A DNA stretch of 24,660 bases from a virus: the UHGV virus genome UHGV-2140017; one strand, given 5' to 3'. A model generated the notes under the pieces. That model was not told the DNA's origin. It ran no database searches and saw only the letters and a program-made list of their open reading frames with translations. Within the stretch, counting starts at the first letter, position 1; each line of letters starts with the position of its first letter. A program made the translations under genes and the position numbers. Of this stretch, positions 11,087-11,994 are shown piece after piece.

Positions 11087-11994
11087 CCCCGGAACCCCCG
11101 TGGAATCGTGGTTTGTACTGGACTAATTGAATTAACATCCCGCGGTCTGGTTTTGTCCCACGACTCCCTTGGCGGGCGGCCTTTAGCATCCCAACGGATA
11201 GCGCTTTGCAGATATCCCTCGAATTTTTTAGGGCCAAAAAGTGTCTCGGGGCGCATGTACTGGTATTGCTCGTCGTTGCCATGCCAGTGCTCATGCTTGA
11301 CGTCAATTACCAGTTTCAAGTCGCTAACGGTATGGCCTTCGCGGAGGCGGGCGCGAATGTTCTCCAGCGAGGTCTTAGATTTCTGGTAACGGGAACCGCT
11401 GACCAGATTCAGGTGTGCCAGAACTTCGATCGCGTTATCGGTAATAACAACTTCAGGATCCGGCTTATCTTCGGGTTCCGCAGGAGCCCGACAAGAAGGT
11501 TTTTTAGATGACGGATCTAATGACGGATCTAATGACGGATCGCCTTCAACCATTGAGGGGTCCTCCCGCAATATTTGAGGGGGTACAGACCCATTATTTG
11601 AGGCATCAGAATTTGACCCCTCAAATTTTGAACCCTCAAATTCTGAGGCATCAAATTTTGATTGTTCACGTGGCGTTGCGTAGAAGATTTTTGCTTCAGC
11701 TGCTGCACGTTCAAGCATGTCCACATTGAGTTTATAAACGTTCGAATTATTCTTTCCGCCCACGCGCCGTTCCTGCTTCTTCAGCCAGCCTTTAGCCTGA
11801 AGCTTTTTGATAGCGCTGCGGACAGTATTCTCGCTCTTGGCGCCGATCTGTCGCTGAATAGTGGTTACCGCTGGCCATGACACACCTTCGTCATTACTGA
11901 AATCTGCCAGGCGAGCCATGACCGCTATTTCTGAGATTATCAGCCCTTTGAAAGCGCATGCTTCCCATACGAGGCCGTGTAATTTACTGCTCAT
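11083..11994 (-). CDS. Phage replication initiator (O-like: N-terminal HTH, low-complexity linker, conserved phage C-terminal domain)
   Basis: N-terminal winged-helix region ([52 protein letters not shown]), linker encoded by the iteron DNA ([12 protein letters not shown]), C-terminal domain typical of phage replication proteins. Position matches lambda O. Confidence 0.65.
   Translation of the reverse strand: [303 protein letters not shown]
11508..11661. repeat. Iteron-like repeat array inside the replication initiator gene (candidate phage origin)
   Basis: Three tandem 12-bp units ATGACGGATCTA/ATGACGGATCTA/ATGACGGATCGC, then several direct and inverted copies of TTTGAGG/CCTCAAATT and two copies of GAGGCATCA(G)AATTTTGA in an AT-rich stretch. 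Confidence 0.55.

Follow-up and report, generated by a model that had tools for sequence, protein, structure and literature searches.

Does the cluster of short repeats at positions 11508-11661 of the viral genome UHGV-2140017 mark the place where this phage starts to replicate its DNA, and if so, what reads it? The stretch analyzed, referred to here as the window, comprises 24,660 nucleotides (nt); Klebsiella phage Kp4866-6 matches it at 99% identity, and nothing close to it was found among E. coli genomes. It carries a lambdoid early region, and the repeats lie inside a gene whose product resembles phage replication initiators. A preliminary description of this DNA had proposed that they are iterons and form a candidate origin. 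This reading is supported by three observations: the array is found in about 130 distinct relatives, its type follows that of the N-terminal domain, and it is constrained at the level of nucleotides. On these grounds, 11508-11661 is likely to be the initiator-binding array of the origin of a lambdoid Klebsiella prophage, placed within the linker-coding part of its own initiator gene.

The initiator gene and its palindromic array

The protein of 303 amino acids (aa) encoded by this gene scored above the curated cut-offs of three family models, namely, HTH_36 (35.2 bits against a cut-off of 25; aa 22 to 71), Phg_2220_C (82.1 bits against 27; aa 191 to 263), and TIGR02220 (69.6 bits against 66.65). 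Its PHROG matches were 428 (“replication initiation protein”; 1.7e-63), 11896, and 391 (“O-like”; aa 1 to 179), with “primosomal protein” also among the annotations of the families matched, and there were weak matches to the DnaD_N and “DnaD-like helicase loader” profiles (Pfam and PHROG). The lambda O family, Phage_rep_O, was not matched in the Pfam scan (E <= 0.01), which returned HTH_36, Phg_2220_C, and the weak DnaD_N alone. Judged by these profiles, the protein is of the replication-initiator type. Public annotation largely fails to recognize this role of the family, as its homologues (1591 at E <= 1e-10) are usually named “conserved phage C-terminal domain-containing protein” or “GntR family transcriptional regulator.”

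In the AlphaFold2 model, a winged-helix N-terminal domain (aa 1 to 106; predicted local distance difference test score [pLDDT] of 82 to 92 over most of it) is followed by a linker that is predicted to be disordered (aa 109 to 174; pLDDT of about 33), a helical C-terminal domain corresponding to Phg_2220_C (aa 180 to 270), and a disordered tail (aa 280 to 303). The repeats occupy codons 111 to 162 of 303 and, given these boundaries, encode the linker only, as the preliminary description had placed them. Foldseek likened the N-terminal domain to dimeric MarR/ArsR/GntR-type winged helices; the search was dominated by this domain and was uninformative for the C-terminal one. The N-terminal domain, which we presume to be the origin-binding domain, is common to the initiators of SfIV, SfII, and phiP27, whose C-terminal domains differ. 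One phage-genome paper described similarity among such “replication proteins” as limited to the N-terminal 160 residues with the helix-turn-helix domain pfam13730 (PMC7556043), a span that takes in the linker.

Read on the gene strand, the cluster consists of seven cores of the form TCAA-N3-YTGA, each of them an 11-bp palindrome, followed by 12-bp repeats of the type GATCCGTCA (Table 1). Five of the seven cores are exact to TCA[AG]NNN[TC]TGA. Successive cores start 15, 15, 15, 15, 23, and 22 bp apart, and the unit of the array is one core plus a 4-nt G/C-rich spacer. Tandem Repeats Finder (TRF) detected the 15-bp periodicity over 11596-11661 (period 15, 4.3 copies; period 30, 2.2 copies). The same region contains a long inverted repeat (30-nt arms at 11596-11625 and 11627-11656, 80% complementary) and a 23-nt repeat pair at 11557-11602. 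Both sequence copies singled out in the preliminary description were found (GAGGCATCAGAATTTGA at 11600-11616 and GAGGCATCAAATTTTGA at 11645-11661). Its direct and inverted TTTGAGG/CCTCAAATT repeats are also present, although they are not the repeat unit, which is the palindromic core at 15-bp spacing. The binding register could be either TCAA-N3-TTGA or TTGA-N4-TCAA, as palindromes repeated at a fixed period give symmetry in either one.

Table 1. Coordinates of the features discussed, given as positions in the window; core sequences are written on the gene strand.
Feature	Position	Strand	Basis or remark
Replication initiator gene (303 aa)	11083..11994	-	Open reading frame (ORF) and translation
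N-terminal winged-helix domain, coding region	11677..11994	-	AlphaFold2, Foldseek
Candidate iteron array, seven palindromic cores TCAA-N3-YTGA	11546..11661	.	TRF, motif search, comparison
Core TCAAAATTTGA	11651-11661	-	Exact
Core TCAGAATTTGA	11636-11646	-	Exact to TCA[AG]NNN[TC]TGA
Core TCAAAATTTGA, second copy	11621-11631	-	Exact
Core TCAAATTCTGA	11606-11616	-	Exact
Core TCAAATAATGG	11591-11601	-	Degenerate
Core TCAAATATTGC	11568-11578	-	One mismatch; off-frame
Core TCAATGGTTGA	11546-11556	-	Exact
GATC element, three 12-bp repeats	11508..11543	.	TRF, motif search, relatives
DnaT-like C-terminal tail, last ~24 codons of the initiator	11086..11157	-	Family profile match
Dam-family N6-adenine methyltransferase gene, same operon, downstream	9496..10449	-	Pfam Dam PF05869, 7.3e-43

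The motifs are concentrated in this region well beyond expectation. CCTCAAAT occurs five times in the window, with 0.88 expected and none of 100 shuffles reaching five, and four of these copies fall within 11573-11641; all four window matches to TCAAANTTTGA (<=1 mismatch) lie at 11606-11661, exactly 15 bp apart. Under synonymous recoding with the peptide fixed and codons drawn from the window's own usage, at least four exact cores arose at P = 5e-5. The “AT-rich stretch” of the preliminary description is only mildly so, with 57 to 62% A+T in the array (measured over 40 bp) versus a window mean of 48.6% (standard deviation, 8.6), and is not a high-AT tract of the lambda kind; the richest tracts of the window (75 to 85%) are operator or intergenic regions elsewhere. 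In the repeat region there was no promoter-like site and no Rfam match (E <= 1), and terminator-like sites were at chance level only.

Relatives were gathered from annotated phages and from 160 further loci in genomes and viral contigs, giving 163 genes, of which 131 were distinct over the first 600 nt. All relatives with this N-terminal domain have the same layout: the domain, then a 15-bp (5-residue) periodic array, and then a GATCC(G/A)TCA pair. Among the 131 distinct genes, the density of exact cores TCA[AG]NNN[TC]TGA in the linker was 110 to 147 times that found in the remainder of the loci, with one to eight copies per gene and successive cores mostly 15 bp apart. Three classes were distinguished. 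The window class (Klebsiella and Raoultella) has the core TCAAAATTTGA and the peptide FEGSK; class A (SfIV, LLS, phiNP, YeP1, and many others) has the core TCAAAATCTGA and the peptide SDASK; and class B (Erwinia, Edwardsiella, and many IMG/VR contigs) has the cores TCAAATATTGA and TCAACGGTTGA and the peptides DPSNI and DPSTV. The half-site of the core follows the class of the N-terminal domain, being TTGA in the window class and class B and CTGA in class A.

The N-terminal domain and its array are joined, as one block, to three different C-terminal domains: Phg_2220_C (the window, LLS, phiNP, and YeP1), an SfIV type with no Pfam match, and a phiP27 type, with genes for DnaC-like and DnaB-like proteins coming after its own. 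In Salmonella phage 118970_sal3, the C-terminal domain is 78% identical to that of the window and the N-terminal part is unrelated, and the linker carries, at the same position in the gene, a different repeat set with a 23-nt period and dyads of its own. The TCAA/TTGA array was likewise absent from mEp390. On these sequences, the type of array goes with the type of N-terminal domain and not with the C-terminal domain, which is the modular behavior known for lambdoid O genes, in which the iterons move together with the origin-specific N-terminal part. As for the 118970_sal3 gene itself (118970sal3_00059, annotated as “putative transcriptional activator”), at least four 23-nt repeats with the dyads AAACCAGATTGCGG / CCGCAATCTGG lie at 2750-2952; the gene is probably mis-annotated, and its array is probably the origin of a second initiator class.

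Constraint on nucleotides and the GATC element

We compared codon choice inside and outside the arrays across the whole family, with units set by the peptide alone (Ser-x-x-Asp/Glu). The serine at unit position 1 was TCA in 389 of 401 cases, versus 14% elsewhere in the same genes, and the serine at unit position 3 was TCT in 190 of 207 (8% elsewhere). For the other residues, a single codon was used throughout the units: AAA for lysine (185/185; 62% elsewhere), AAT for asparagine (83/83; 44%), GAA for glutamate (32/32; 59%), ATT for isoleucine (31/31; 36%), and GTT for valine (57/57; 33%). The information content was highest at unit positions 3 and 9, both of them codon third positions, and positions 12 to 15 were nearly free.

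A second comparison was restricted to 17 distinct genes of the window's class. Third codon positions were variable at 72 of 100 sites in the N-terminal domain and 67 of 90 in the C-terminal domain versus only 8 of 55 in the linker (72 to 74% in both domains, 15% in the linker). The ratio of codons with synonymous changes only to codons with amino acid changes was 68:6, 51:18, and 2:19, respectively. Within the array, 2 of 40 core positions varied, compared with 16 of 76 other positions (Fisher P = 0.03). Class B pointed in the same direction at low power, with one synonymous and 10 amino acid-changing codons in the linker and 10:0 in the N-terminal domain. Together, the sequence comparisons indicate that within the gene the linker shows the strongest conservation at synonymous sites and the weakest constraint on the protein, that is, that the constraint acts on the nucleotide sequence and not on the peptide. 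The presence of a core in another reading frame was dropped as an argument for selection on DNA, with a single off-frame exact core in 131 genes and a mismatch in the off-frame core of the window, TCAAATATTGC.

The other part of the cluster had been described as three tandem 12-bp repeats, and this proved accurate: ATGACGGATCTA occupies 11508-11519 and 11520-11531, and a third copy, ATGACGGATCGC (10/12 identical), occupies 11532-11543 (TRF, period 12, 2.8 copies, 100% matches, score 68). On the gene strand they read GATCCGTCATTA / GATCCGTCATTA / GATCCGTCATCT, with GATC at 11514, 11526, and 11538, and they are about 50% G+C. No other place in the window has three GATC within 40 bp. The motif GATCCRTCA occurs four times in the window versus 0.29 expected, three of them within the repeat region, and three copies were obtained with P = 0.0016 under synonymous recoding with the peptide fixed. 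In relatives, the two members of the GATCC(G/A)TCA pair are 24 bp (57 genes), 21 bp (28 genes), or 18 bp (6 genes) apart, and a triplet at 12+12 bp is present in 18 genes, the window included. Inside the arrays, the dipeptide Asp-Pro is encoded as GAC-CCN in 254/254 cases, so that GATC does not occur there, while at the pair it is encoded as GAT-CCN; the count at the pair is partly circular, the pair being defined by GATC, but the total lack of GATC in the arrays is not.

The GATCC(G/A)TCA pair is nearly alike in all three N-domain classes. The 12-bp repeats are a distinct conserved GATC element and not extra copies of the iteron. Because the element is constant across classes, a host factor or methylation-dependent control is more likely to act on it than a class-specific N-terminal domain; it could be a control site that responds to Dam/SeqA or could serve in an accessory or unwinding capacity. 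Pairs of GATC sites in the hemimethylated state are bound by SeqA, and GATC is abundant in P1 oriR as well as in the 13-mers of oriC. The phage also has a Dam enzyme of its own (Table 1), which could methylate the element. Of the distinct related loci with at least 1.5 kb of downstream sequence, which numbered 132, 59 had a window-like Dam gene close to the initiator.

Proposed mechanism and competing explanations

We infer from these features that the initiator binds the array, that the origin fires there, and that a helicase is then recruited, in the following steps. After induction, a transcript from the cro-side promoter would cross cro, cII, DUF4222, and the initiator gene (the gene order itself was observed) and, by running through the initiator gene, would also run through the origin. 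The winged-helix N-terminal domain would bind the seven cores, probably as dimers, to form a nucleoprotein complex similar to the lambda “O-some,” with four to five cores 15 bp apart and two at 22 to 23 bp. Aided by transcription, this complex would destabilize the neighboring DNA, which has no obvious AT-rich element to mark a site of first unwinding. The adjoining GATCCGTCA repeats would most likely tie the use of the origin to Dam methylation or SeqA, or else function as an accessory site. The last step would be the recruitment of host DnaB by the C-terminal domain and tail. The preliminary description had noted that no P- or DnaC-type loader follows the initiator, which is borne out by the genes that come next (PerC-like, Dam, and C5 methylase) and by the lack of any match to helicase, loader, or primase profiles among the ORFs of the window. 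Without such phage proteins, the C-terminal domain and tail would have to act through host factors, and the resemblance of the tail to DnaT points to the DnaC or primosome pathway.

This resemblance is confined to the end of the protein. A profile of the family matched Protein Data Bank chains of DnaT (6aep, E = 0.0026; 2ru8; and 9zbt_D residues 130 to 179), with profile positions 240 to 285 aligned to DnaT residues from about 130 to 179, up to the C terminus of both proteins. They share the motif RD(V/I)N..S....IP.GFRG at the very end; class B relatives end in VNHISEPDTEIPPGFRG, where 13 of the 17 last residues match E. coli DnaT. The initiator has no DnaT N-terminal domain; the tail is the sole match, and there is no similarity over the full length, which in DnaT comprises an N-terminal oligomerization domain, an acidic linker, and a three-helix C-terminal domain. 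Homology of the whole of Phg_2220_C to the DnaT C-terminal domain was not supported either (a diverse C-domain profile gave E = 0.58, over the tail only). The tail is present on both Phg_2220_C and SfIV-type C-terminal domains and absent from phiP27 L17, which has its own DnaC and helicase genes next to it; some other relatives have entirely different tails. The expectation that the tail occurs only where there is no loader was not upheld, given that 22 distinct class B genes have both the tail and a DnaC-like gene next to them, and the tail is therefore not a simple loader substitute. In DnaT, residues 154 to 179 add to the affinity and cooperativity of binding to single-stranded DNA (ssDNA) (PMC4132743), and its C-terminal domain has PriA as a docking partner and assembles into a filament on the ssDNA of the lagging strand (PMC13377028).

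We advance, as a hypothesis, that the DnaT-like tail is part of the origin mechanism. A bolder and rather doubtful proposal is that these prophages represent a very common, uncharacterized class of enterobacterial replicon with one phage protein and an origin made of the phased array and a Dam-methylatable GATC pair, in which the initiator would load DnaB by imitating the DnaT tail. A sequence-specific origin would thereby be plugged into the PriA/PriB/DnaT-DnaC primosome pathway in place of a lambda P-type loader. A separate observation concerns NZ_CP148542.1, a 15,977-bp circular molecule from E. coli that contains a lambdoid early region only (cI, cro, a class B initiator, a DnaC-like ATPase ... 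RusA, and Q) and resembles the lambda-dv plasmids. The reading frame of its rep gene (1660-2637) is broken exactly at the GATC pair, which could be a methylation-related sequencing error, a real defect, or an assembly artifact. It was not used as evidence of a natural mini-replicon.

Several points weigh against an origin at this locus. There is no lambda-like high-AT tract adjoining the array, since 40-bp windows within it or beside it do not exceed 62% A+T and the richest 40-mer in the gene is 68% A+T (11711-11750), and neither a DnaA box (TTWTNCACA, <=1 mismatch) nor the integration host factor (IHF) consensus WATCAANNNNTTR was found within 10900-12400. Classical iterons measure 18 to 22 bp and recur about every two helical turns, unlike the 11-bp cores with 15-bp spacing seen here. 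The sequences in the comparison share ancestry, so the events behind the codon counts are not independent; the low divergence of the linker among the 17 relatives could come in part from recent exchange of the segment; class B sequences are too alike for a powered repeat of the codon-position test; and the covariation of half-site and N-domain class is based on three classes only. Finally, the literature searched offered no description of, or experiment on, the origin of this initiator family.

Among the other explanations, the one that survives best, although we consider it unlikely, is that the cores are real initiator sites used for regulation and that initiation takes place elsewhere or by other means, such as recombination-dependent replication. 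The sites could then serve in autorepression or as a roadblock to transcription of the operon, titrate or handcuff the initiator, or keep out related phages. The missing AT-rich unwinding element next to the array and the missing loader or helicase would fit, and plasmid-borne lambda iterons do inhibit lambda replication in a titration-like manner (PMC3349717). However, the window spans the early region from Q to past cI plus the pL-side early genes and has no other iteron-like array or candidate origin. Moreover, the position, modularity, and multiplicity of the sites fit known origins inside initiator genes (PMC7466680, PMC3349717), and regulatory and origin roles are not exclusive.

Less probable still is that the repeats are a by-product of a low-complexity, flexible peptide linker, driven by slippage, with the DNA having no function of its own. 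They do encode 5-residue repeats in a region predicted to be disordered, their copy number differs between relatives (for instance, 733R5 and Klebsiella phage 1 LV-2017), and slippage and gene conversion can hold codons identical by descent. Against this, what is conserved is the palindrome and not the codon: unit positions 3 and 9, both third positions, are nearly invariant, while positions 12 to 15 and several first and second codon positions vary. Synonymous choice is 97 to 100% fixed across classes whose peptides differ, the linker is the part least variable at third positions with changes that mostly alter the amino acid, and the same Asp-Pro dipeptide avoids GATC in the arrays and fixes it at the downstream pair.

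We also regard as very improbable that the sites belong to another binding factor and have a role outside replication; such a factor could be a host nucleoid protein, SeqA, Dam, or a neighboring phage regulator of the CII-like, PerC-like, or DUF4222 kind. The near identity of the GATCCGTCA element in the three N-domain classes makes a common reader, possibly from the host, more likely, and a Dam gene is often adjacent. Such a factor would account for the GATC element but not for the array, whose half-site shifts with the class of the N-terminal domain and which is replaced as a whole when that domain is swapped, whatever the flanking genes; DnaA and IHF consensus sequences are also lacking. 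A further alternative, which we consider very improbable as well, is an element that acts mainly as ssDNA: after unwinding or transcription, the inverted repeat at 11596-11656 would extrude or fold as a hairpin and direct primosome assembly or priming, as PriA-type sites do, instead of working as duplex iterons. The strong fold of the + strand at 11500-11670 as ssDNA (-30.6 kcal/mol versus -16.2 +/- 2.8 for shuffles; z = -5.1), the DnaT-like tail, and the lack of an encoded loader speak for it. Against it, palindromic units in an array produce an overall dyad automatically, conservation across classes concerns the 11-bp core and its 15-bp phasing and no particular stem, the long-range dyads of class B are weaker and its arrays have fewer units, and a hairpin could be an added step rather than an alternative. 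The fold may be a by-product of the palindromes or a priming signal.

Genomic setting and comparison with known origins

The early region of the window is lambdoid in its order, with a CI-like repressor gene (13244-13876, + strand) followed on the - strand by genes for Cro, a CII-like protein, DUF4222, and the initiator, which by this order occupies the O-like position of the cI / cro-cII operon. On the 3' side of the initiator are genes for the PerC-like activator, Dam, the C5 methylase, RusA, regulators, an HNH protein, and a Q-like antiterminator. Three methyltransferase genes lie on the - strand: one at 1668-2747, beyond the Q-like gene; one for a 656-aa C5-cytosine methylase at 7533-9503, whose start overlaps the stop of the third; and the Dam-family gene listed in Table 1. 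For 10 kb of one early/late-early operon, such a number of genes with an anti-restriction or epigenetic role is unusually high. At the junction or overlap of the end of the C5-methylase gene with the next ORF (7060-7563), there is a 25-nt tandem repeat (7496-7543; 1.9 copies, 82% match).

Two sets of three 14-bp palindromes ACAGTTTnnnCTGT flank the repressor gene, one between cro and cI (13156-13214) and the other just downstream of cI (13946-14014). From their sequence and placement, they are evidently the OR and OL operators, respectively, of the phage repressor. The second set sits in a region of 75 to 85% A+T and accounts for the 24-nt tandem repeat reported by TRF at 13970-14014. The most AT-rich repeat region of the window (13920-14030), which contains this tandem repeat, was rejected as an origin because it corresponds to the OL operators with the palindromes of OR. 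Between OL and the rightward early genes there is a block of ORFs (14298-16214, - strand) that runs opposite to the direction expected for pL; a PHROG match is lacking for most of them, one matches PHROG 1244 (unknown function), and the block could be moron or defence cargo.

That an origin may lie inside the initiator gene is the textbook lambdoid arrangement. The present variant of it is widespread and unannotated and is unusually clean to test by synonymous recoding. If the proposed reading is true, it locates the origin for a large prophage family of Klebsiella, Enterobacter, Escherichia, Shigella, Salmonella, Yersinia, and Erwinia and provides a signature for finding such origins, namely, phased TCAA-N3-YTGA cores and then a GATCCGTCA pair. 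Because the protein segment is disordered and the DNA signal is largely at synonymous positions, origin and protein function should be separable by synonymous recoding, for instance, TCA to AGC in the cores and GAT to GAC in the GATC sites. The combination of no loader and a DnaT-like tail also turns host-helicase recruitment by a one-gene phage replicon into a testable question.

Compared with iteron plasmids, P1 oriR, and oriC, the element has in common the clustered repeats, the adjoining GATC cluster, and a possible control by Dam/SeqA. Plasmid iterons are typically 17 to 22 bp long, about 22 bp apart, and intergenic and are accompanied by DnaA boxes and an AT-rich element. In contrast, the period here is 15 bp with 11-bp cores, only the two outer sites are 22 to 23 bp apart, and the repeats are intragenic, with no DnaA box or IHF consensus in the interval searched and no AT-rich element. 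Judged by its sequence, the window element is not a classical plasmid iteron origin. A parallel in protein layout is found in phages of Gram-positive bacteria. Origins in genes for replisome organizers or DnaD-like initiators are reportedly found in SPP1 (gene 38/oriL) and in the lactococcal TP901-1 and Tuc2009 types. These organizers combine an N-terminal DNA-binding domain with a helical C-terminal domain and have repeats inside their own gene, as in the initiator of the window. In these Gram-positive phages, the organizer gene is usually accompanied by one for a loader, a helicase, or both, the host factors used are Gram-positive, and the repeats are unrelated to those of the window. The Phg_2220_C domain, for its part, is shared with many proteins of Staphylococcus, Streptococcus, and Lactobacillus phages (tblastn).

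The preliminary description had stated that the arrangement mirrors lambda. The lambda origin consists of four 18-bp iterons and a joined 38-bp high-AT tract within gene O (PMC3349717), and Stx phages have six iterons versus four in lambda (PMC7466680). Unlike lambda, the window has 11-bp cores at 15-bp phasing and no high-AT tract; its initiator is built from HTH_36 and Phg_2220_C with no Phage_rep_O match; no P-type, DnaC-like, or gene 12-like loader or helicase gene lies directly downstream; and a conserved GATC pair or triplet is added. The likeness thus does not extend to the high-AT tract, the Phage_rep_O-family initiator, or the P-type loader, but it does hold for the architecture. As in lambda, the candidate origin occupies a central position in the initiator gene, which belongs to the rightward early operon (here, the cro/cII operon), and consists of several repeated sites with internal dyad symmetry, here seven cores. 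To one side of these sites the gene encodes an N-terminal DNA-binding part specific for the origin and to the other a C-terminal part that can be exchanged. As among the relatives of lambda, the number of repeats varies from one relative to another, and transcription would cross the origin.

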